Below are positions 12,334-34,041 of a stretch of DNA of 64,000 bases, piece after piece. How positions within the stretch are numbered: position 1 is the stretch's first letter; each line of letters starts with the position of its first letter. Under the pieces are notes generated by a model that was not told where the DNA came from, did no database searches, and saw only the letters and a program-made list of their open reading frames with translations. Location of the stretch: the NCBI GenBank assembly GCA_965197745.1, contig CBDANS010000007.1, positions 1,888,001-1,952,000 on the forward strand, read 5' to 3'. The translations under genes and the position numbers were made by a program. The DNA is from Opitutales bacterium (GTDB lineage: Bacteria > Verrucomicrobiota > Verrucomicrobiia > Opitutales > PNEW01).

Positions 12334-12418
12334 GCTCAGGTGGTGGAATTGGTAGACACGTACGCTTGAGGGGCGTATGCCGAAAGGTGTAGGGGTTCGA
12401 GTCCCCTCCTGAGCACCA
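12334..12418 (+). tRNA. tRNA-Leu (anticodon GAG)
   Basis: Acceptor stem GCTCAGG/CCTGAGC, anticodon arm TACGC-TTGAGGG-GCGTA, long variable arm, T-loop GTTCGAGT, encoded CCA. Confidence 0.97.
12394..12418 (+). repeat. attL core (3' end of tRNA-Leu)
   Basis: GGTTCGAGTCCCCTCCTGAGCACCA, identical to 19413-19437 (30 bp with one mismatch if extended from 12389). Confidence 0.92.
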
Positions 12419-12477
12419 ATTTTCAACATACTCATTCTAAAAGAGTTATATATCTTAACAGATAGCGATTTCCTAAT

Positions 12478-12524
12478 TAAGAACATAGGTAAGAACAAAT
12501 CATATGTGTTTACCTATGTCATTA
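12478..12524. promoter_or_regulatory. Putative integrase arm-type binding sites near attL
   Basis: TAAGAACATAGGTAAGAACA (12478-12497) matches 19305-19324 at 19/20. An inverted 13/15 copy lies at 12510-12524. Confidence 0.65.
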
Positions 12525-13000
12525 ACATTTTAACTAAGACTAACAAGGAGCATATCTTGGCTGTCGGGTTTTTAATTTGTTTACTCATTAACTAACCGAG
12601 AGAAACACTTTTAATAAATAGATGACCTTTAAATAGCCGTGAAATTGCTTCGATAAATTGAAATTGTACTTCACAAGAGTCCACTTAGTTTAATACTCGT
12701 ATCAACTTCGATTCTCCTATGGCCAAAATAAAGTGCTCGTACTTTCTGGTAAGTATTAATAATTCAAAAGTAAAAATTACTAAGTTAGAAAAATAATTTG
12801 TAATCCTACTACTCATAACACAGATATTCTTACCCCATTTTTCTTTGTTTCACAGAGAGGGGTTTCCTTCACCCATTGGCCCTCAGATTTATGATATAAT
12901 CCCTTTCCGAAGGCCCAAATCAAACTAAGGCAATCAATTAATCAATCGACAGTTATTGCTCTATTCGCTTGATTTTTAGACGCTTTCGAATTATAATATA

Positions 13001-13265
13001 TTGAATATGAAAGACTTACCATACAGATTTCGTGAACAAAGTTTTCGGCGATTCGAGCCTCACATCAATGACATCGTTAATTGCTTTCCTGAGCCAATTG
13101 TCATTGATCCATCTCCGCTTTCCCAGGTCACTTTTTCATGTAGGCTTCGAGACGCCATAAAGTCGCTAAGCGAAAACCGCTGGCCGACTGATATCAATAT
13201 GGAGCGGTTCGATATTATTTACCCTAACATCGTGGTTTGCGAAGGACTGGGTGAAGTTAGAGTGG
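13001..13265 (+). pseudogene. Hypothetical island gene truncated by IS3 copy 1
   Basis: The ORF runs into the IS left end at 13266, and its last residues are IS-derived. Confidence 0.6.
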
Positions 13266-14552
13266 TGGTCGTGACCACGAAAACTGGTCCACTTGAAAAG
13301 TTAGTCTGGTCCAACTAGAAAGGACACAGACAATGAAAGGCAAAAGATACACGACCGAAGAGAAAATACGGATGCTGCGCCAGGCGGACAAAGGGAAAAC
13401 GATCCTGGAAGCATGCCGCGAGAACAACATAAGCGAACAGACCTTCCACCGCTGGAAACGTGAGTTTGGGATGATTGATGTCAACCAGGCCAAGCGGATG
13501 AAGGAGCTCTTTGAAGGAGAACGCGCGGTTAAAACGGATGCTGGCGGACAAGATGCTGGGGATAGAGATCCTGCAGGAGACCCTCGAAAAAAAACTGTAA
13601 GCCCTGGGCACAAGCGGCAAGTGGCAGAGAGACTTGTGACTCGGGGCCAGTGTTCGATGCGAGCGGGGTGCCGGTACTTTCGGCTGCACCGTTCCACCTA
13701 TGCGTATAGGGCCAAGCATCCGGATGCCTGGCTAACGAAACTAAAAGCGGCAGTAAGGCGGTTATCACGGCAATACGCGAGGTGGGGCTATCCCAAGATC
13801 ACGAAGCTGTTGAAGGACGAAGGCTGGCAGGTGGGTAAACGTCTCGTGCAAGGTCTGCGACGTGAACTGGGTCTGGCGATCCCCCCACGCAAGCCAAGAC
13901 GCCGGCGCAGGGGTGTCTGCACCGGGCTACCGACAAAGGCCGAACATCCCGACCATGTTTGGACCTGGGATTTTATCCACGATAAGACGGTTCGCGGCGG
14001 CAGTCTAAAAATGCTGACCGTGCTCGATGAGTACACCCGCGAGTGCCGGGTGATCCATGTTGATCGCCATATCAATGCGGAAACGGTGCGCGGTATCATG
14101 CAAAAACTGCTCGACCGGCATGGGCCGCCAAAATATATTCGTAGCGACAACGGTTCCGAGTTTATTGAAAGCCAATTGAGAGCCTGGCTAACTGCGATGA
14201 AAATCAAAACCCTCTATATCGAACCAGCAAGCCCTTGGCAGAACGGATACATTGAATCGTTCCATGCCCGTTTTCGCGAGGAGTGTTTAAACCGTGAACA
14301 GTTATGGACTTTGACCGAAGCCCGCGTGGTCATCGAAGATTGGCGCTGGCTTTACAATCATGTCCGACCCCACCGCAGCCTCGGCAACATCACTCCACGG
14401 CACTTCACTGAAAACCTCAATACCGAAGGCTCGGGCTCCATTCGGGCTACGCCCTCATTGCGCCCAAGCCTTGACTTCCTCTACCAACTTAACTTCAACA
14501 TTAACCTCTCCAGACTAACTCTCCCGGTGGACCAGTTTGTGTAACCCGACCA
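13266..14552 (+). mobile_element. IS3-family (IS407-like) insertion sequence, copy 1 (1287 bp)
   Basis: TG...CA ends with imperfect IRs TGGTCGTGACCACGAAAACTGGTCCAC / TGGTCGGGTTACACAAACTGGTCCAC. DDE motifs WTWDF, SDNGSEF, NGYIESF. A8 slippery run at 13587-13594. Confidence 0.95.
13333..14544 (+). CDS. IS3 transposase, OrfA-OrfB fused by a +1 lesion (GA->TTT at 13510-13512)
   Basis: Comparison with copy 2 shows GAGCTC-GA-GAAG changed to GAGCTC-TTT-GAAG, which shifts into the OrfB frame about 25 codons early. Confidence 0.8.
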   Translation: MKGKRYTTEEKIRMLRQADKGKTILEACRENNISEQTFHRWKREFGMIDVNQAKRMKELFEGERAVKTDAGGQDAGDRDPAGDPRKKTVSPGHKRQVAERLVTRGQCSMRAGCRYFRLHRSTYAYRAKHPDAWLTKLKAAVRRLSRQYARWGYPKITKLLKDEGWQVGKRLVQGLRRELGLAIPPRKPRRRRRGVCTGLPTKAEHPDHVWTWDFIHDKTVRGGSLKMLTVLDEYTRECRVIHVDRHINAETVRGIMQKLLDRHGPPKYIRSDNGSEFIESQLRAWLTAMKIKTLYIEPASPWQNGYIESFHARFREECLNREQLWTLTEARVVIEDWRWLYNHVRPHRSLGNITPRHFTENLNTEGSGSIRATPSLRPSLDFLYQLNFNINLSRLTLPVDQFV

Positions 14553-14652
14553 GTATGCATATCAATTTATTGATTTTATTTTCTGAATAAAATGTAATAA
14601 TATTAATAAGTAGGTAGTCAACTCAGTCTTTATAATGATGTTTTAAATTACT

Positions 14653-15912
14653 ATGAATAAATCATTTATTTTACTGTCTCTATTTCTCTTATTGACCACT
14701 ACTACTATGATTATTGAAGCAAATGATGAAAGGTTAATGGATGAACCCTTTTTTGAGGTCAAAGATCTAATCATTGCTGAAGGAGAGGTAGCCGCCTATG
14801 GGCTTCCCCTGATCACGGTTACGGTTAAGGGAACGGTTCTCATCAGCAGTAATGCCCGCGTCGGCGACCGTCACGATATGGGCAATGTTCAATACGGGGT
14901 GCTTTTGAGAAGCACGGACAATGGCGAAACCTGGATGAAGAAAAAATTCGATGCTCTTCCTCAAGGAATTATTTCAGACCGGGTGACGGGGAAAGTAATG
15001 CTTTTCATTCCCGAAAGCGGTAAACTACTACGACCGGATGGAAAGCGGATGGATGAAAAGTGGGCGGTTGAGAATCCGCCTGAAGAGGCGAGAGAGATAT
15101 GGCAATATGAAAGTAATGATGACGGTATTAGCTGGGCGAAGGTTCAGAATATTACCCCGATGTTACAGAAGAAAAAATATACCCATATTGTGGGACCAAA
15201 CTATGCGAGTGGCCTTCAATTACAGTATGGAAAGCATAAGGGTCGATTGATTCTTCCGGGACGGACCTTTGTCAAAAATATTTTTGAATTCCAGTACAGC
15301 CGGAATACCCTTCTTTATAGTGACGATCACGGGATAACCTGGAAGGTTGGAGGGTTGAGCCAGTTGGCCATAGGTGAAGCCTGCGCCGTGGAATTGTCTG
15401 ACGGCAGCCTATATCTGAATAATCGCAACGAAGCCGGGCGCGTTTATCGCAACAAGAACAATCCGGACGCCGTTCATTTACTTAACGGGAGAAGCGCAGC
15501 CGTCCGCTGCTTTTCGATCAGCAGAGACGGTGGAGAAACATTTACTGAATTTGGTGAAATTGATGAGTTTATCCATGCTACCTGTCACGGTGGGATGGCT
15601 CGTCTTACTGACCGCAAATACGGTAACATTTTCCTGTTTTCCAATCCGGGCACGAAGATGGGGCAGGAAAAGGCGTGGGGAGAAAGGCATCACTTAACCG
15701 TGTGGGCTAGTATGGATGAAGCTAAGACCTGGGCAGTGAAAAGGGTAATTAACGAAGGACCAGCTGGTTACTCCTGTATGGCGGTGGGCAGGGACGGGAC
15801 GATCTTTGTTGCTTTCGAACGTGGCCCAGAAAATTATCGCACTAACACCGCAGTGGCCAGATTTAACCTCGCATGGTTAATGGAGAATGTGGACTTGGCC
15901 AAGGTCCAATAA
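14653..15912 (+). CDS. Secreted sialidase-like (GH33, BNR/Asp-box beta-propeller) protein
   Basis: Signal peptide, five Asp boxes (STDNGETW, SNDDGISW, SDDHGITW, SRDGGETF, SMDEAKTW), C-terminal 'GYS' and 'FERG'. Confidence 0.85.
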   Translation: MNKSFILLSLFLLLTTTTMIIEANDERLMDEPFFEVKDLIIAEGEVAAYGLPLITVTVKGTVLISSNARVGDRHDMGNVQYGVLLRSTDNGETWMKKKFDALPQGIISDRVTGKVMLFIPESGKLLRPDGKRMDEKWAVENPPEEAREIWQYESNDDGISWAKVQNITPMLQKKKYTHIVGPNYASGLQLQYGKHKGRLILPGRTFVKNIFEFQYSRNTLLYSDDHGITWKVGGLSQLAIGEACAVELSDGSLYLNNRNEAGRVYRNKNNPDAVHLLNGRSAAVRCFSISRDGGETFTEFGEIDEFIHATCHGGMARLTDRKYGNIFLFSNPGTKMGQEKAWGERHHLTVWASMDEAKTWAVKRVINEGPAGYSCMAVGRDGTIFVAFERGPENYRTNTAVARFNLAWLMENVDLAKVQ

Positions 15913-16016
15913 AGGTGCGTGATATTTACGATTAATGGACATACCCAGCTTTTGATTAAAATTGCTTTGGGTGTAAAATAATCGATAGGGAAATGAATCA
16001 GTAAAAGGATGGCGTT

Positions 16017-16139
16017 ATGTCATATCAGATGATAGACGGTTTCCCGGTGTGGGGAGAGCCCCTAGAGAATGCTGTAGATCAAATCAGGAACTGCGCCAAG
16101 GATGCAGCGCATGTTGCACATTTTTATGGGGAGGGATGA
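16017..16139 (+). pseudogene. Probable N-terminal fragment of an RtcB-family RNA ligase
   Basis: Reads MSYQMIDGFPVWGEPLENAVDQIRNCAKDAAHVA.. with an AAGGA RBS. Resembles RtcB N-termini (recognised from memory) and breaks off before the 'MADHHxGY' motif. Confidence 0.5.
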
Positions 16140-16163
16140 GAACCCGAGAAGAGGGTTATGCAA

Positions 16164-16198
16164 ATTGTCGATTGCCGATATTCGATTGTGGATTGAAT
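16164..16198 (+). repeat. Degenerate heptamer tandem array
   Basis: ATTGTCG ATTGCCG ATATTCG ATTGTGG ATTGAAT. Confidence 0.6.
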
Positions 16199-16210
16199 AA
16201 GATGGTCGGG

Positions 16211-17189
16211 TTACACAAACTGGTCCACCGGGAGAGTTAGTCTGGAGAGGTTAATGTTGAAGTTAAGTTGGTAGAGGAAGTCAAGGCTTGGGCGCAATGA
16301 GGGCGTAGCCCGAATGGAGCCCGAGCCTTCGGTATTGAGGTTTTCAGTGAAGTGCCGTGGAGTGATGTTGCCGAGGCTGCGGTGGGGTCGGACATGATTG
16401 TAAAGCCAGCGCCAATCTTCGATGACCACGCGGGCTTCGGTCAAAGTCCATAACTGTTCACGGTTTAAACACTCCTCGCGAAAACGGGCATGGAACGATT
16501 CAATGTATCCGTTCTGCCAAGGGCTTGCTGGTTCGATATAGAGGGTTTTGATTTTCATCGCAGTTAGCCAGGCTCTCAATTGGCTTTCAATGAATGGCTT
16601 TGCATGTCGTCGCTTCGCTCCTCGGAACGGAACCGTTGTCGCTACGAATATATTTTGGCGGCCCATGCCGGTCGAGCAGTTTTTGCATGATACCGCGCAC
16701 CGTTTCCGCATTGATATGGCGATCAACATGGATCACCCGGCACTCGCGGGTGTACTCATCGAGCACGGTCAGCATTTTTAGACTGCCGCCGCGAACCGTC
16801 TTATCGTGGATAAAATCCCAGGTCCAAACATGGTCGGGATGTTCGGCCTTTGTCGGTAGCCCGGTGCAGACACCCCTGCGCCGGCGTCTTGGCTTGCGTG
16901 GGGGGATCGCCAGACCCAGTTCACGTCGCAGACCTTGCACGAGACGTTTACCCACCTGCCAGCCTTCGTCCTTCAACAGCTTCGTGATCTTGGGATAGCC
17001 CCACCTCGCGTATTGCCGTGATAACCGCCTTACTGCCGCTTTTAGTTTCGTTAGCCAGGCATCCGGATGCTTGGCCCTATACGCATAGGTGGAACGGTGC
17101 AGCCGAAAGTACCGGCACCCCGCTCGCATCGAACACTGGCCCCGAGTCACAAGTCTCTCTGCCACTTGCCGCTTGTGCCCAGGGCTTAC
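16211..17189 (-). pseudogene. IS3 orfB frameshifted by 34-nt cassette at DNGS-E-F
   Basis: Split into ORFs 16587-17165 and 16211-16729. Confidence 0.88.
16595..16628 (-). other. 34-nt GA-rich hairpin cassette replacing a Glu codon in orfB
   Basis: GTTCCGAGGAGCGAAGCGACGACATGCAAAGCCA is absent from copy 1, which has GAG here. Confidence 0.9.
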
Positions 17190-17452
17190 AGTTTTTTTTC
17201 GAGGGTCTCCTGCAGGATCTCTATCCCCAGCATCTTGTCCGCCAGCATCCGTTTTAACCGCGCGTTCTCCTTCTCGAGCTCCTTCATCCGCTTGGCCTGG
17301 TTGACATCAATCATCCCAAACTCACGTTTCCAGCGGTGGAAGGTCTGTTCGCTTATGTTGTTCTCGCGGCATGCTTCCAGGATCGTTTTCCCTTTGTCCG
17401 CCTGGCGCAGCATCCGTATTTTCTCTTCGGTCGTGTATCTTTTGCCTTTCAT
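17186..17452 (-). CDS. IS3 OrfA (HTH + leucine zipper)
   Basis: 88 aa ending at the A8 slippery site (17192-17199). Confidence 0.9.
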   Translation of the reverse strand: MKGKRYTTEEKIRMLRQADKGKTILEACRENNISEQTFHRWKREFGMIDVNQAKRMKELEKENARLKRMLADKMLGIEILQETLEKKL

Positions 17453-17510
17453 TGTCTGTGTCCTTTCTAGTTGGACCAGACTAACTTTTCAAGTGGACCA
17501 GTTTTCGTGG

Positions 17511-18158
17511 TCACGACCAAACGCTTACGCGTCTATTTTCAGATTGGACTAGTCCAAGTCTTTGACGGGTCTTTCTGATCGAGTCAAAGCTGCAATCCAT
17601 ATCCACCAAGATGTTAAAGAATTCAAAAAGGGCATTATCATCAAATTGGCAAAGTGGCGGAATCCCTCGGTGTATAGACATGACCCAGCCCCATATCATT
17701 ATATCTTTAATACGCGTTAGCTTATATTTTTTGTAGTTCAATTCCTCACCTAACCTTACAAAAAAATCTGTATCATCTTTTTTAATAGCACGATCCAATC
17801 GAGCTTTAATAATTGGGTGGTTTAATTTTTTCGTGACTCTGCAATATGCAAATACTAAAGAATCATGATAGTTATATTGTTTATTCGTTATACGTTTAAT
17901 GTTAACCGCTTTATTTATTTTTTGAGCAAGTGCATGTTCAACAGATTCACGTATAGTTTTATCATCTACGATATAAAAATCTTCTTTAAGCCTCTTATTT
18001 ATGGAGAATTCAGATGTATTGGGGAAGGGTGCTATTTCAAGAAGAATGCCCGTTAACAGTTCCCGCTCCACATGTGTTGGTCGATGTCGAGAAAGTATTT
18101 CTATCAATAATTGTGGAGATATGGGTTCTTTATTTTTTTTCTCTGCCATAGCTTTCAC
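17511..18158 (-). CDS. Hypothetical island protein, C-terminus abutting or truncated by IS copy 2
   Basis: Overlaps the integrase stop, and its own stop codon lies inside the IS end. Basic C-terminal 'SIRKTRQRLGL' may be DNA-binding. Confidence 0.65.
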   Translation of the reverse strand: MKAMAEKKNKEPISPQLLIEILSRHRPTHVERELLTGILLEIAPFPNTSEFSINKRLKEDFYIVDDKTIRESVEHALAQKINKAVNIKRITNKQYNYHDSLVFAYCRVTKKLNHPIIKARLDRAIKKDDTDFFVRLGEELNYKKYKLTRIKDIMIWGWVMSIHRGIPPLCQFDDNALFEFFNILVDMDCSFDSIRKTRQRLGLVQSENRRVSVWS

Positions 18159-19300
18159 ACAGTTATATCAGGCAATGAATCGAGAGCTTTCCGCTTCGCT
18201 TCATCTTCTATATGTGTATAATTCGCACTAATCATCTTGGATTCATGGCCAATGATATCCATCGCTACGGCTTCACTCACTCCCGCGTTTTTAAAAAGGC
18301 TAGTTGCTGTGTGTCGTAAACAATGGAAGCTGATCTCATTTACATTGCGCTTAGCAGATCGCCCCTTTCCGGTGGATTTTTTTGTTCTCGGCTTCGCGAG
18401 ACCCGATGCAACCAGTAACTCATAGAATTGGTTACTCAAAGTAGATATATTTATACAGCGTTTTAATGTTTCAAAAGCCCTGGGGAAAAGTGGCGCTTTC
18501 GGGTCATCACTTGAAGGCAGTAATTCAATCCATTCTTTTAATGGCTTAGCTAATGGGATAATCTGCCGCCGTCCTGTTTTATGAGCGGAAAGTCTTAGTT
18601 CATTTCGAATCAAATCAACATTATGCGAAGTGAGATTTGCCACATCACGAAGTCTTTGGCCGGTGTATAATCCCACCAAGATCATACCCCTCCATTCTTG
18701 ATCTGCCACTTCTAAAATTCTCTTCAATTCTGTTAATGTAAATGGCCTTCTTTCTATCATTTCCTCTCTTCTTTTAATAATTACAGTTTTGGCTGCCGGA
18801 TCATCAGCTATTAGCCCTTCGCGCCAAGCTGCTTTAAAGGCCACTCTGATAATCTTAAGCTTGCCGTTGGCTGTTACTGCAGTGCTCTTTTTAGCCGCAT
18901 TATCCCGAAAACTTGAAATATCAGCAGTAGTAATACTTGAGATATCTTGATCCGCCCTAGGTCCAATAAAATCTAGAAAATCGAGAACTGTCCCTTCATA
19001 CTTGGAAGTAGTAAGATCAGAGACTTCAACTTTTTTTGTTGCCAGCCATCTCTTAAAAAAATCACGTAGTGTTGAAGTCGGTAGAGATTTTCCGTTTATC
19101 TTTTCGTATATGTCCGATAAGACACGTCGGGCTTGTGCTTCTGTTAATTTTCGCCGGGCAGCATCTTCCCATTCGTCTGCAATAATTTGGGCATTCTTTC
19201 GGTTAACTTCTTTAGTGCTTCTTTTTGTTCTCCTACCATTCGGTAGGGTAAAGCATGCGTACCAATATTTACTTTTAGGATGTTGCCATACACTCGACAT
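18155..19300 (-). CDS. Tyrosine recombinase / phage-type integrase
   Basis: Catalytic R (YTGQR), HxxR (FHCLRH), GH and Y (NYTH), plus an N-terminal arm-binding-like domain. Confidence 0.95.
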   Translation of the reverse strand: MSSVWQHPKSKYWYACFTLPNGRRTKRSTKEVNRKNAQIIADEWEDAARRKLTEAQARRVLSDIYEKINGKSLPTSTLRDFFKRWLATKKVEVSDLTTSKYEGTVLDFLDFIGPRADQDISSITTADISSFRDNAAKKSTAVTANGKLKIIRVAFKAAWREGLIADDPAAKTVIIKRREEMIERRPFTLTELKRILEVADQEWRGMILVGLYTGQRLRDVANLTSHNVDLIRNELRLSAHKTGRRQIIPLAKPLKEWIELLPSSDDPKAPLFPRAFETLKRCINISTLSNQFYELLVASGLAKPRTKKSTGKGRSAKRNVNEISFHCLRHTATSLFKNAGVSEAVAMDIIGHESKMISANYTHIEDEAKRKALDSLPDITV

Positions 19301-19304
19301 AATG

Positions 19305-19324
19305 TAAGAACATAAGTAAGAACA
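19305..19324. promoter_or_regulatory. Putative integrase arm-type site near attR, in the int translation-initiation region
   Basis: TAAGAACATAAGTAAGAACA (tandem TAAGAACA), 4 bp from the int start codon. Confidence 0.65.
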
Positions 19325-19412
19325 TCATTTATGTCAAACGTGTTCAATGACATTTAAAATATTAATATTTATTAACTTATAACAGTATTTAAGATGGAGG
19401 ATTAGTCGTAGA

Positions 19413-19437
19413 GGTTCGAGTCCCCTCCTGAGCACCA
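19413..19437 (+). repeat. attR core (duplicated tRNA-Leu 3' end)
   Basis: Identical to 12394-12418. Confidence 0.92.
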
Positions 19438-28769: not shown

Positions 28770-29568
28770 ACAAGTATATATAGCTAATGACTATTAACTT
28801 TTTGTCAATGAATGAAGACACTTCCTGACCTCTACCATTCGTGAAGTTAAATTCAAAGTCTAATGAATACAAATTTTCATACTATAAATAACATTAGCCT
28901 CTTGCAAATATAAATAAATAACCTTTCATAGTCTATATCGTGACACGCATAAAACACCTTCTCAATGAGATTAATTATGAACTGGTACGTCGTTTGGCTG
29001 AAGGGGGAATGGGTGAGGTTTACGAGGCACGTCAAAACGGGATTGACCATTTTTCTAAGACCGTAGCCATTAAGTTAATTCGCGAAGAGTATTCCGCGAT
29101 AAAAGAGTTTCGTAGAAATTTTGTGGGTGAGGGCAAAACTGGTAGCAGATTTAATCCATACCAGTATCGTGCAAACCTACCATCTTGGGGAAATAGAGGG
29201 GCAGTATTTTATCGTAATGGAATATGTAAACGGCATCAATCTTGAAGAATTTCATTTTAAACATATGTCACTTCGCATTCCCATCCCTATCGATATAACC
29301 GTTTTTATTGTATCACGAGTATGCCGTGGCCTCGCCTATGCGCATACTAAATGCGATAAAGAGGGAAGACTTCTCAATATTGTCCATCGCGATGTCAACC
29401 CCAAGAACATCATGCTCGCCCATGAGGGGGATGTTAAGCTCACTGACTTCGGTATCGCGAAAGCCCTCGATCTCATGTATAACGTAGAAGGTGAAGTTAT
29501 TGCTGGAGTGACCCCCAAAAATGGTATCATTAACAGAGAGAGGTTATCGGGATAAACAGATAACCTCA

Positions 29569-29835
29569 ATGAAAAGAAAAAGATATACAACAGAACAGAT
29601 CATAGCAATACTGCGGCAGCCCGATACGGGCAAAACCGTGCAGGAAGTCTGCCACGGCAACAACCTAAGTGAACAGACCTTCTATCGCTGGGGCAAAAAG
29701 TATGGCAACTTGGAGCTGGCTGATGCGAAGCGATTTAAAGAGCTGGAAAAGGAGAATACGGAGCTGAAGAAGATGCTCGCTGATCAAATGCTCAAGCTTC
29801 GGGTGTTGGAGGAAACGCTCTCAAAAAAATGGTGA
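29569..29835 (+). CDS. IS3 OrfA
   Basis: MKRKRYTTEQI...LSKKW with an A7 slippery run at 29823-29829. Confidence 0.88.
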   Translation: MKRKRYTTEQIIAILRQPDTGKTVQEVCHGNNLSEQTFYRWGKKYGNLELADAKRFKELEKENTELKKMLADQMLKLRVLEETLSKKW

Positions 29836-30263
29836 GCCCAAAGCAGAAGAAGCGAGCAGTAAAAGATGCGGCTGAGAAGGGGCTGTGCTCGTTTTAGAGG
29901 GCTTGTGCTTATCTCAGCCTCAGTTGGTCAACGTACAGCTACCGACCCAAGCAGGCCAGTAAGAAGGCTCAGCAATTGGCCGAGCGGATTTTGACCTTGT
30001 CCTGGGAACATCCCCGTTACGGTTACCGGCGCATTCGTGCCTTGCTGGTGAAAGAAGGTTGGGCGGCAAGCAGGAAATTTGTACAGGCAGTGCGACGTTC
30101 TTCGGGCTTACAGGTAAAGCCCCCGAAAAAGCGTAGACACCGTCAGGGGATCTCTACTGGGCTCCCTACTAAAGCAACCGGTCGCAATCACGTCTGGTCC
30201 TGGGACTTTGTCCATGATCGTACAGACAATGGCGGTATGCTAAAGATGATGACCTTGATCGAT

Positions 30264-30308
30264 GTACCGAGGAGCTGAAAGCGACGACACTCAAGCGAAG
30301 CGAAGACA
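30264..30308 (+). other. 45-nt GA-rich hairpin cassette replacing the Glu codon of D-E-Y-T-R
   Basis: GTACCGAGGAGCTGAAAGCGACGACACTCAAGCGAAGCGAAGACA, with an in-frame TGA at 30276. Confidence 0.85.
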
Positions 30309-30434
30309 TATACGCGTAAATGTTTACGCATCCGGGTAGCTCGACAGCTCACCTCAACCGATGTTCTCTCGGTACTCAGCGAAACCATCGATGAAGAGGG
30401 AGTTCCTAGCTATATCCGCAGTGACAACGGCAGT

Positions 30435-30468
30435 GTTCCGAGGAGCGAAGCGACGACATGCGAAGCCA
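30435..30468 (+). other. 34-nt GA-rich hairpin cassette replacing the Glu codon of DNGS-E-F
   Basis: GTTCCGAGGAGCGAAGCGACGACATGCGAAGCCA, 33/34 identical to the cassette at 16595-16628. Confidence 0.9.
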
Positions 30469-31272
30469 TTCATTGCTCATCAGGTGCAGCAGTGGTTGTC
30501 CGACAAAAAGATCAAGGCGATATATATCGATCCGGGCAGTCCCTGGCAAAACGGTTTCATCGAGTCGTTTCACAACCGCTTACGCGATGAGTGTTTGAAC
30601 CGTGAAGTGTTGCTCAGCGTGGCTGAAGCGCAAGTGCTAATAGAACAATGGCGTCAGACCTATAACAATGAACATCCCCACAGTCGATTAGGCTTTAAAA
30701 GCCCACAAGAGTTTGTCACATTCCTTTCCGCTCTTGGCCGCGTTCGGGCTACGCCCTCACTGCGCCAAGATCTCTCATATACATCAATCCTAAAACCATT
30801 AACACCCGGTAGTTCTCTCACTTAAAATTTGATACGAAATACGGGGTCCGATCATTGCTGGTAAAGATGAATACCTATCCCCGGAACAGGTTCGACGAGA
30901 TGTAACAGATGCCCGGGCTGATATTTTTTCATGTGGTATCGTATTAGCGGAATTGCTCCTCGATAATAATATTTTTGAAGAAGATCATCCCAAGTTGACC
31001 CGCAAGAATATCCTCAAAATGCCAATACCGGATTTTACAAAATTGCGCTCTGATATAGATCCTAAACTGAACGAAATCCTTCATAAAACTTTTCAGCGGG
31101 ACCGCAAGAAACGATACCAAAGTGCCGCTGAATTACTCACCGCCCTGGAAGTTTACCTCTATAGTGATGGTTATGGACCTACCATTGAAAAATTAGCGGA
31201 TTATTTGCGTAATTTATTTTCCGATAAAAAACCCGAGGCCTTAACCCATCAGTCGACGGGACCTTCTTCTTG

Positions 31273-32776: not shown

Positions 32777-33292
32777 CTATGGGGAGGAAGCGTGATGCCT
32801 TTCCAGATGAGCCACGCCGCCTTCGCCGAAATAAATTCTTTTAAACGAATCAAGAAGAACCCTGATTTTCTCAACCTGCTTTGCATCAACAGTCTGTTTG
32901 CACTTCATGGCGTGTACGAGAATTTTATGTAAGACAACGAGTTTTTCCTGGTAGGCCTCATGTCCCTCGGCGTTATCACTATTGACTGGCTTGATTCTTT
33001 GAAAGAGAAAATATTGGGTTACAATATGCTGTATTTTATTCGCGTGTTCTTCCTTATTATTAACCCATCGAACTAACTGGTTGTAATTTTTATCATCCTC
33101 TATGGATAGCTTTCGGATCTCAGTCATTGATTTTTCAATCGTCTGGCAATTCTCTTCAATCATATCGATTCGCATTGCGTCTCCGTAGATACCACAGGGA
33201 ATTTCGCAATGGGCAAAAGCAACTGGCGATGGTGCGATAATAAATAAAGCTGCAACCACCGATAATCTTATTTTTTGAGTCATTCTTTTCAT
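32777..33292 (-). CDS. sodN: Nickel superoxide dismutase precursor
   Basis: Ni-hook HCEIPCGIY after a 27-aa leader ending AFA, plus 'RWVNNKEEHA'. Confidence 0.88.
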   Translation of the reverse strand: MKRMTQKIRLSVVAALFIIAPSPVAFAHCEIPCGIYGDAMRIDMIEENCQTIEKSMTEIRKLSIEDDKNYNQLVRWVNNKEEHANKIQHIVTQYFLFQRIKPVNSDNAEGHEAYQEKLVVLHKILVHAMKCKQTVDAKQVEKIRVLLDSFKRIYFGEGGVAHLERHHASSP

Positions 33293-33351
33293 ATTGTTCC
33301 TTAGTGTTTTATAATCTTGAACTATCAAATAAAGGAGTGCATGCAAATTAA

Positions 33352-34041
33352 ATGTCAACAGCGTTCGGCAACTCTCTGAATTCACAGACTTTACTTCTTT
33401 TAGATGCCAGTTCTTTAGTCATTCAGACGGGATTATTGCGAGAGGGGAAGTGGGCAGCTTATATCGAATCTAAAGAGGAATCACTGAATTCACTTTTTAC
33501 GGGAACTGATACATGCCTGAAAAAAGCACAGTGTGATCTCGAGACCATTGATGGTTTTATCTTATGTCAAGGACCCGGTTCAATTCTGGGATTAAGGCTA
33601 ACGATTATGGCTGTTAAAACCTGGCGGACGCTACCTTCTCTTCGCAGGACCAACCTCTATCTCTATGGCAGTCTGGAAATAGCCGCCGCTCTTCATTCAA
33701 CGCGAAATATATCGCAACCATTTCATTTTATATCAGATTATAATAAAGATCATTGGAACCTCTTAACTGTAGTAAATAACGATCATCATCTAATACAGGT
33801 GAGCACGGAATATTTAAATAATCTCAACGGTCCTATTTGGCATATTCCTCAACGACATAACGTGAAAGCGCCACCGTCTCAGGTGAAAACCCTGGAATAT
33901 TCTCTCAAAGACCTGCCCCTGGTTCTCGACCGGACTTCACTTTTTCATCAATATAATGATCTCAGCCAAATTAAACCCGGTAAATCAAATTTTACTAAAT
34001 GGCACAGTAACCGCCATCGTAAATATTCAGAGAAGGATTGA
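33352..34041 (+). CDS. tsaB: TsaB/YeaZ-like protein (divergent)
   Basis: 'LLLDAS' and 'GPGSILGLR' (canonical GPGSFTGLR). Confidence 0.6.

Follow-up and report, generated by a model that had tools for sequence, protein, structure and literature searches.

A 44-nucleotide insert in an IS3-family transposase gene of an Opitutales bacterium and its relation to a family of short non-coding modules

Among the described systems that come closest to the insert investigated in this study are the small dispersed repeats SDR4-6 of Nostoc/Anabaena, which were reportedly introduced by Elhai et al. in 2008 and are said to comprise 21-27 nt, with conserved ends surrounding a variable hairpin. Insertions within coding regions are known from the Rickettsia palindromic elements, which with a length of about 100-150 bp are located in-frame in protein genes and become translated with the host protein, and from translational bypass elements, such as those of T4 gene 60 and the mitochondrial 'byps', where inserts of 27-55 nt that contain stop codons reside within open reading frames. 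A further group of short repeats, the REP and REPIN sequences, is, according to two published accounts, moved by RAYT transposases of the Y1 HUH type (PMC3116915, PMC3733652).

Here, we have analysed a stretch of 64,000 nucleotides from the genome assembly of an Opitutales bacterium (GCA_965197745.1, contig CBDANS010000007.1, positions 1,888,001 to 1,952,000), referred to as the window, in which the transposase gene orfB of an IS3-family element is interrupted by 44 nt. We moderately favour an interpretation in which these 44 nt were inserted at the level of DNA as a non-coding module of ultra-small size, which resembles SDR and REP sequences and which does not carry an enzyme of its own. Full-text searches of the literature have not returned a published description of these inserts.

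The interrupted transposase gene and its host element

The host of the insert is an element of 1351 bp, termed ISc, on the plus strand of the window (29504-30854), whose boundaries were defined from the ends that are common to 24 copies (TGGAGTGACC...GGTCCGATCA). It displays the hallmarks of the IS3 family, which include an orfA with a helix-turn-helix (HTH) motif and an orfB with an rve domain, a run of A7 or A8 between both (A7 in ISc), TG...CA ends and a target duplication of 3-4 bp. Its pieces match the profiles HTH_Tnp_1 (1.2e-19), HTH_21, rve and rve_3 (3.8e-26). With respect to the common ends, the element is flanked by the 4-bp target duplication TTGC on its left (29500-29503) and right side (30855-30858) and it interrupts a gene encoding a Ser/Thr kinase, while its own orfB is broken by two inserts. 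Further downstream in the window, an open reading frame on the minus strand (32777-33385) encodes a protein with the predicted mature N-terminus HCEIPCGIY, which may resemble the nickel-hook motif of Ni superoxide dismutase.

A second type of IS is represented by two copies within a genomic island at a tRNA-Leu gene (12334-19437), where they are inverted relative to each other. The island also contains an integrase gene on the minus strand (18155-19300), and a 30-nt copy of the tRNA 3'-end recurs at 19408-19437. The first copy, ISa (13266-14552, plus strand), is free of inserts and contains a single open reading frame of 403 amino acids (13333-14544), since orfA and orfB have become joined through a GA-to-TTT change at 13510-13512. 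The second copy, ISb (16203-17519, minus strand), carries an insert of 33 nt, and both are identical over 1287 nt except for this insert, a T/C change located 3 nt downstream of it and the described GA-to-TTT change in orfA.

In a sequence-only reading of the window, the insert in ISc had been described as a 45-nt cassette variant at the Glu codon of the motif D-E-Y-T-R, and the quoted letters were confirmed to correspond to positions 30264-30308. A comparison of filled and empty alleles supports the location and the affected codon but not the length, as the first base of the former Glu codon in the sequence LID-E-YTR of orfB has been retained as G30264, and the insert proper thus comprises the 44 nt at 30265-30308 on the plus strand. 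In the filled allele, these separate the sequences atcgatg and tatacg, which in seven empty copies of the ISc type enclose the bases AA (atcgatg-aa-tatacg). In empty alleles of the ISa type the equivalent bases are AG (ctcgatg-ag-tacacc), as found in ISa at 14029-14031, where the AG of the GAG codon in L-D-E-Y-T-R (14030-14031, plus strand) illustrates the state without insert. The alignment to homologues with an empty site, in line with a check proposed in the same reading, has thus defined two replaced bases, either AA or AG, and none that would be duplicated.

A second insert of 33 nt, rather than the 34 nt initially assigned, replaces the AG of the Glu codon in the sequence SDNGS-E-F at 30436-30468 on the plus strand. 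It recurs with one base different at 16595-16627 on the minus strand in ISb, and the corresponding empty site is the AG of a GAG codon in ISa (14159-14160, plus strand). The empty form of both sites in ISc is also found in an independent public run without recorded library kind, termed X1, where one contig jumps positions 30265-30307 of site 1 with one A in between (depth 15.5) and another jumps positions 30436-30468 of site 2 with AG in between (depth 280), which amounts to one contig per site with shorter sides of 24 and 28 letters, respectively, that fall below a guideline of 31 letters.

The two inserts differ in their effect on the reading frame. At site 1, the net change of +42 nt preserves the frame, which is read as GAT GTA CCG AGG AGC TGA, and the in-frame TGA supplied by the 44-mer (30276-30278, plus strand), whose introduction had already been recognized, terminates the open reading frame of orfB (29976-30278). 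At site 2, the net change of +31 nt causes a frameshift. The 44-mer thus knocks out orfB via its stop codon, with the 33-mer adding a shift of the frame.

Both consequences bear on an alternative where the insert is tolerated or of regulatory use, with UGA either being read through or hopped over to yield a low level of a transposase containing a loop of 14 residues, so that the insert would act as a built-in attenuator. Such a role would be in line with the preserved frame, with the position of site 1 at what is presumably a beta-hairpin turn of the RNase-H-like fold, and with the finding that every one of the 36 ISc-type copies carries at least one insert despite a recent burst of the family. 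It would also be in line with an amplified subfamily in the genome of a sister genus (G355), where orfB consists of one frame of 188 + 171 codons that is interrupted by the TGA of the insert alone, and where read-through of the lone UGA would be possible. In contrast, read-through cannot rescue orfB of the window since its frame is shifted by the 33-mer, and the inserts found at other sites shift the frame as well. Moreover, the 44 tRNAs of the genome, which is 92% complete, include neither tRNA-Sec nor a UGA-suppressor tRNA with UCA anticodon, no fitting pair of take-off and landing codons could be read from the sequence and no structure is predicted that would exceed that of shuffled sequences. 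We thus regard a tolerated insert as improbable.

An equally intact gene product could be obtained if the insert was cut from the mRNA in an intron-like manner, so that the gene would not be truly broken, which would be indirectly in line with the presence of inserts in conserved motifs of an IS that appears to have been mobile in recent times. However, a metatranscriptome contig of 725 nt (X17, depth 30) spans positions 29668-30382 and proceeds through the insert without gap, although DNA carry-over is possible in this case. RNA contigs that skip the insert were not found, which constitutes weak evidence, as the search covered contigs in two libraries with thin coverage shares of 0.17 (X17) and 0.08 (X19). 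The RNA libraries also contain inserts at two further sites of related copies, described below as sites 3 and 4. Additionally, a search of the IS and of the IS-borne inserts in Rfam did not return a match to any family, the empty alleles exist as DNA and a precise excision would leave the two lost bases unrestored. Nothing thus supports a removal at the level of RNA, which we consider highly improbable.

Targets and architecture of the module family

The similarity of the two inserts noted at the outset is confirmed, as both start with GTWCCGAGGAGC, contain GCGACGACA as core and terminate with CA. The pattern CCGAGGAGC-N3-5-GCGACGACA has three matches in the window compared to none in each of 100 dinucleotide shuffles, and a search for TWCCGAGGAGC-N3-5-GCGACGACA in the examined genome (7 contigs, 4.45 Mb, 92% complete) has yielded 101 matches compared to none for the reversed control. 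To place the inserts in the context of their hosts, we have used BLAST with the two IS types of the window, which resulted in 133 HSPs, and our alignment comprises the 76 copies with a coverage of more than 1100 nt of a query, with fragments being excluded. Among these, site 1 is filled in 31 copies, including 29 of the ISc type and 2 divergent ones of the ISa type, and it is empty in the remaining 45. An insert of 37 nt in place of AG in the sequence RD-E-CLN defines site 3, which is filled in 9 of the 76 copies, and one of 44 nt in place of AA or AG of a Gln codon in PW-Q-NG defines site 4, which is filled in 12. A fifth position coincides with the A8 frameshift run, where 25 nt in opposite orientation replace AG in 6 copies. 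The proposed cassette family with at least two targets in one gene is thus found at no fewer than five fixed positions in two diverged families of IS3 elements, where it follows one rule, with two bases out and T...CA in, and where each site has its own variant of the insert.

At all five positions, the surrounding sequence is more conserved than the median (percentiles 0.64-0.97) and every ISc-type copy is disabled, which could reflect a host defence that writes modules into conserved motifs of transposases and in this way silences the IS. Such activity would not explain the many members in non-coding repeats and in copies of tRNA 3'-ends, where no silencing is needed, no candidate system was found and the IS families have amplified regardless, so that we attribute little probability to this scenario.

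Outside of IS, the family is represented by basic units of 24-29 nt, which are found in arrays of the heptamers CAATCGN and CCCTGAA as well as in two dispersed repeats, one of them MITE-like. From the periodicity of the CCCTGAA array, AA can be identified as the replaced bases. Three further copies reside 3' of tRNA-Asn and tRNA-Gln (L001, C6:355536-355700; L002, C5:236532-236610), where the insert is part of a copy of the tRNA 3'-end (GGTTCG-insert-TCC...) and where it takes the place of the AA found in the real T-loop (GGTTCG AA TCC).

The breadth of these targets is at odds with the initial suggestion that the inserts are directed to Glu codons, as one site is a Gln codon, another is antisense at the A8 run, and others are found in non-coding arrays, the MITE-like repeat and the copies of tRNA T-loops. 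Given the Gln, A8-run, array and T-loop targets, the inserts take the place of a dinucleotide, mostly AR, instead of being tied to codons for Glu. Similarly, the proposed templating of the ends by the target, for which a covariation had been suggested as a test, is not supported, as the echo is confined to the two sites where it had been noticed, which is illustrated in the pairs formed by bases 1-3 of the insert and the next three bases downstream (TAC/TAT, TTC/TTC or TTC/TTT, TAC/TGT, TAC/AAC, TAC/TTT, TTC/TCC, TAC/AAT, TAC/CCC and TAC/TTC). An inspection by eye for guide-like pairing between each variant and its own flanks did not reveal a consistent match. We have also considered a restoration of the Glu codon by the last AG of GCGAAG, which fits three sites but fails at site 4 and in the T-loop.

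With respect to their architecture, the modules, which span 24-44 nt, are composed of four parts, a 5' sequence TWCCGAG, a short stem-loop, the sequence GACA and a 3' part with variable sequence and a terminal CA. In the basic units, TACCGAG is followed by a hairpin and GACATCTTCCA, and the 3' end is often CCA. The pattern TACCGAG-N5-20-GACATCYTYCA has 53 exact matches in the genome compared to none for the reversed control. In the 44-mer, the layout consists of TACCGAG, the mini-stem GCT-GAA-AGC, GACGACA and a 3' part containing GCGAAGC that precedes the terminal CA. The hairpin of the family is a short mini-hairpin of the GNA type, which was found as GCGAAGC, GCGCAGC, GCGTAGC, GCGTAAGC, ACGTAGT, GGGCGAAGCCC, GGACGAAGTCC and in longer versions, and whose stems vary by compensating changes (GC..GC versus AC..GT and GGGC..GCCC versus GGAC..GTCC). 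In a 2026 review (PMC13037366), GCGNAGC and GCGNNAGC are described as motifs of mini-hairpin DNA, which melts at 76.5 C compared to 39 C for the equivalent RNA, and such motifs are mentioned at priming sites in single-strand DNA.

The folding calculations provide a mixed picture. When subjected to nearest-neighbour folding as either DNA or RNA, neither the 44-mer nor the 33-mer was more stable than shuffles (z +0.6 to +1.5), which counts against a strong structure in a procedure that gives no credit to mini-hairpin motifs. The putative hairpins in both inserts are thus proposed from the presence of the motif and from the comparison across the family. Among 140 distinct hairpin segments, to which no filter for stems was applied and which include chance matches of the search pattern, 40 surpass 95 of 100 shuffles in their folding, and the canonical mini-hairpin motif is found in 8 compared to 1.3 on average and at most 5 among 200 shuffles. 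Terminal inverted repeats are absent, as a comparison of the first 12 nt with the reverse-complemented last 12 nt gave 3 matching positions out of 12 for the 44-mer and 4 out of 12 for the 33-mer, and none of the five IS sites shows a target-site duplication, but instead the loss of two target bases.

Distribution, inheritance and possible origin

Within the order, the 5' module is found in 15 of 121 genomes, which belong to 13 of 80 genera, whereas a control pattern was found in none of the 121. The copy numbers amount to 101 in the genome investigated here (G000), 60 in G355, 56 in G335 and 16 in G331. In four other Opitutales-type genomes, the first approximately 25 bases of the 33-mer are 96-100% conserved, with a second hairpin that differs from that of the 33-mer and CCA following next, while the IS is undetectable at the DNA level. 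Tandem tRNA-linked copies were observed in one genome. In a wider scan of contigs with the core pattern, true members are, among the matches listed, confined to Opitutales-type records, and most of the listed matches are due to chance in high-GC coding DNA. A class-wide scan with the strict pattern of the basic unit, which is too strict for diverged relatives, has identified a match in 1 of 300 other genomes that is possibly a chance event.

The copies of the host provide insight into the history of the insert. The two young subfamilies of this IS comprise 24 copies with a length of 1200 nt or more, all of which carry the inserts at site 1 and site 2. They reside in at least 22 different flanks, with two copies sharing their flanks and one lacking the right end. 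Since these copies at other loci carry both inserts, the IS of the window did not gain them itself but inherited them, and it was the already broken IS that jumped into the kinase gene, contrary to the earlier impression of a single IS that was hit twice. The two inserts are nevertheless separate events, because in G355, which belongs to the same family as the genome studied here, all five sampled copies of an 85.6% identical IS contain an identical 44-mer with sites 2, 3 and 4 being empty. The 44-mer is thus common to two genera. Insertions of another kind, with a length of 27-28 nt, were observed in the region of orfA encoding E-L-E-K-E-N, both in G355 (L143-L147) and at C7:150747-152090 of G000, where they are bordered by imperfect direct repeats of the target with a length of about 9 nt, and small TTT-containing changes are found at the same spot in this genome and in ISa.

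Inheritance could also account for the family at large, if each site was hit once a long time ago and the inserts have since then been distributed by amplification of the IS and homologous recombination, with no insertion taking place today. This relic scenario is consistent with the distinct variant at each site and with IS amplification as origin of the insert in most copies. It is further consistent with evidence for recombination, as a chimeric IS (C7:1673285-1674671), which is of the ISc type upstream and of the ISa type downstream of the 33-mer, contains the crossover inside of the insert, which thus seems to have served as identity stretch for recombination between diverged IS families. 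Likewise, the combined presence of the insert and the T/C change 3 nt away, which distinguishes ISb from ISa, looks like a conversion patch. However, the inserts are nearly identical in IS families that are about 54% identical, where identical runs of 7-8 nt are too short for RecA-type exchange. In pairs of IS with less than 75% identity, the insert at site 1 is 92.7% identical compared to 53.6% for 150-nt flanks (58 pairs) and the insert at site 2 is 97.9% identical compared to 54.1% (1156 pairs), which suggests that the inserts are either younger or more constrained than their hosts. Every combination of filled and empty sites occurs among the IS copies, and the conservation of the 5' module in genera where the IS is undetectable also argues against a relic. 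In a quick maximum-likelihood tree of the IS, calculated with the insert columns removed and showing weak support and long branches, at least five changes of state were obtained at each of sites 1-4 and four at the A8 site, but since the copies recombine, which violates the assumptions of the method, these counts are soft. We consider it unlikely that the family is a mere relic.

In the preferred reading of a DNA-level insertion, a trans-acting activity would install or copy the variant of each site at the same dinucleotide in diverged copies of the IS. Candidates for this activity would be an enzyme that acts on single-strand DNA by reading the mini-hairpin, or a short-patch copying between copies. 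The insert would then spread as passenger on the IS, with broken copies being moved by the transposase of insert-free relatives such as ISa. The open reading frame of ISa retains HTH and rve domains, including all those found on the pieces of ISc, and its terminus TGGTCGTGACC resembles the ISc terminus TGGAGTGACC. It is one of four insert-free copies among 40 of its type and may thus be a candidate source of transposase. A mobilisation of ISc by the ISa type, which is about 55% identical, is an assumption that we make because there is no insert-free copy among those of the ISc type.

The search for an enzyme, whose negative outcome counts against the preferred reading, has covered the 92%-complete genome, where neither RVT_1 as signature of a reverse transcriptase nor TnpB has a match. 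A single gene for a Y1 transposase encodes 198 amino acids compared to 327 in a 93%-identical ortholog of a relative and is thus truncated, and no cassette is found within about 1 kb of this gene. Homologues of Y1 are present in 34 of 121 genomes of the order, namely in 9 of the 15 that contain the module and in 25 of the 106 that do not, in a comparison where kin are not independent. A cassette-like match is found near 2 of 8 Y1 loci in relatives, with the inspected loci being diverged paralogues without flanking cassettes, and we regard the co-occurrence as a faint lead. On contig C1 of G335, we have observed about 31 diverged paralogues of an IS200-like Y1 protein of about 320 amino acids, which are not copies of a single repeat.

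Other potential movers were dismissed. The six IS110 transposases and eight resolvases are not linked to cassettes. The genome contains 14 tyrosine integrases, and in the window the tRNA-Leu island is devoid of cassettes at its att sites. An integrase element at C7:1066300-1066420 interrupts an IS3 copy at the codons I-E-S, a target (ATCGAATCGTT) that resembles the T-loop of tRNAs and that does not coincide with any cassette site. An autonomous master element, which was sought via orphan 3' ends, was not found. The orientation of 101 de-duplicated members outside of IS relative to replication is 61:40 in a list that was pre-filtered for a 2-bp stem, and thus not strongly indicative of a lagging-strand mechanism.

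A more far-reaching proposal would assume a dedicated site-directed DNA activity, which repeatedly writes site-matched variants into diverged IS3 transposase genes, where the same dinucleotide is targeted each time, and into the T-loop of tRNA 3' copies, with RtT-type repeats as products of the same process and with the lone UGA of the 44-mer acting as a leaky-stop attenuator instead of a plain knock-out. We hold this combination to be rather doubtful.

If truly mobile, the family would rank with the smallest known insertions that are selective for their site. With two bases being replaced, no inverted repeats and DNA mini-hairpins as core, it has an unusual signature, and to our knowledge there is no described transposition chemistry that would account for it. 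In IS-rich genomes, the family disables transposases at conserved motifs, and its members would supply portable stretches of identity where diverged IS copies recombine. For annotation, the inserts offer an explanation for transposases that appear pseudogenised by an in-frame TGA, without any need for recoding.

Comparison with known systems

The features of the module distinguish it from several classes of short elements. Both the terminal inverted repeats and the target-site duplication of MITEs are absent. In common with REP and REPIN sequences are a short hairpin next to an unpaired tag that is conserved, a high copy number and a non-coding character, with an enzyme acting on single-strand DNA as plausible mover. 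In contrast, the GTAG/CGTC tag is absent from the basic unit, where the tags are TWCCGAG at the 5' and GACA at the 3' side, and the CGTC found in long variants is on the reverse strand and there by chance only. The modules are also not extragenic and do not flank the sole, truncated Y1 gene. As in case of the Rickettsia palindromic elements, a non-coding repeat resides within open reading frames with the frame sometimes being kept, whereas the insert described here contains a stop codon and is located in genes of mobile elements. With translational bypass elements it shares the short length and the stop codon within an open reading frame, but neither matched take-off and landing codons nor a structure that would support bypass, of which we find no sign, and the frame is shifted by the neighbouring insert.

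A different relationship concerns the tRNA-linked copies, which like RtT RNA (RF00391) and rttR of E. coli contain an arm complementary to the T-stem followed by GGATGAGAAsC. In rttR, the start of the T-loop GGTTCG is equally split by a GC-rich insert with GCGAAGCG, which precedes the last 18-19 nt of the tRNA, although this insert is longer and begins with ACTCGAG instead of TWCCGAG. The scores of the tRNA-linked copies for the RtT family in Rfam (23.7 bits with E 0.076 and 18 bits with E 1.9) are below the gathering score of 45, and we thus treat the proposed link as a lead and not as membership. The resemblance nevertheless offers a testable idea for the origin of tRNA-linked RtT repeats.

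The closest correspondence is found with the SDR sequences, which differ by their occurrence in another phylum and their presumably unrelated sequence, and from which the modules are set apart by the replacement of two bases and by their fixed positions in open reading frames of diverged IS3 elements. Both are ultra-small with a length of tens of nt, where the 21-27 nt reported for SDR compare to 24-29 nt in the basic units and to 44 nt in the member of the window, and both combine conserved ends with a variable hairpin, are nested in other repeats including heptamer arrays and do not encode an enzyme of their own.
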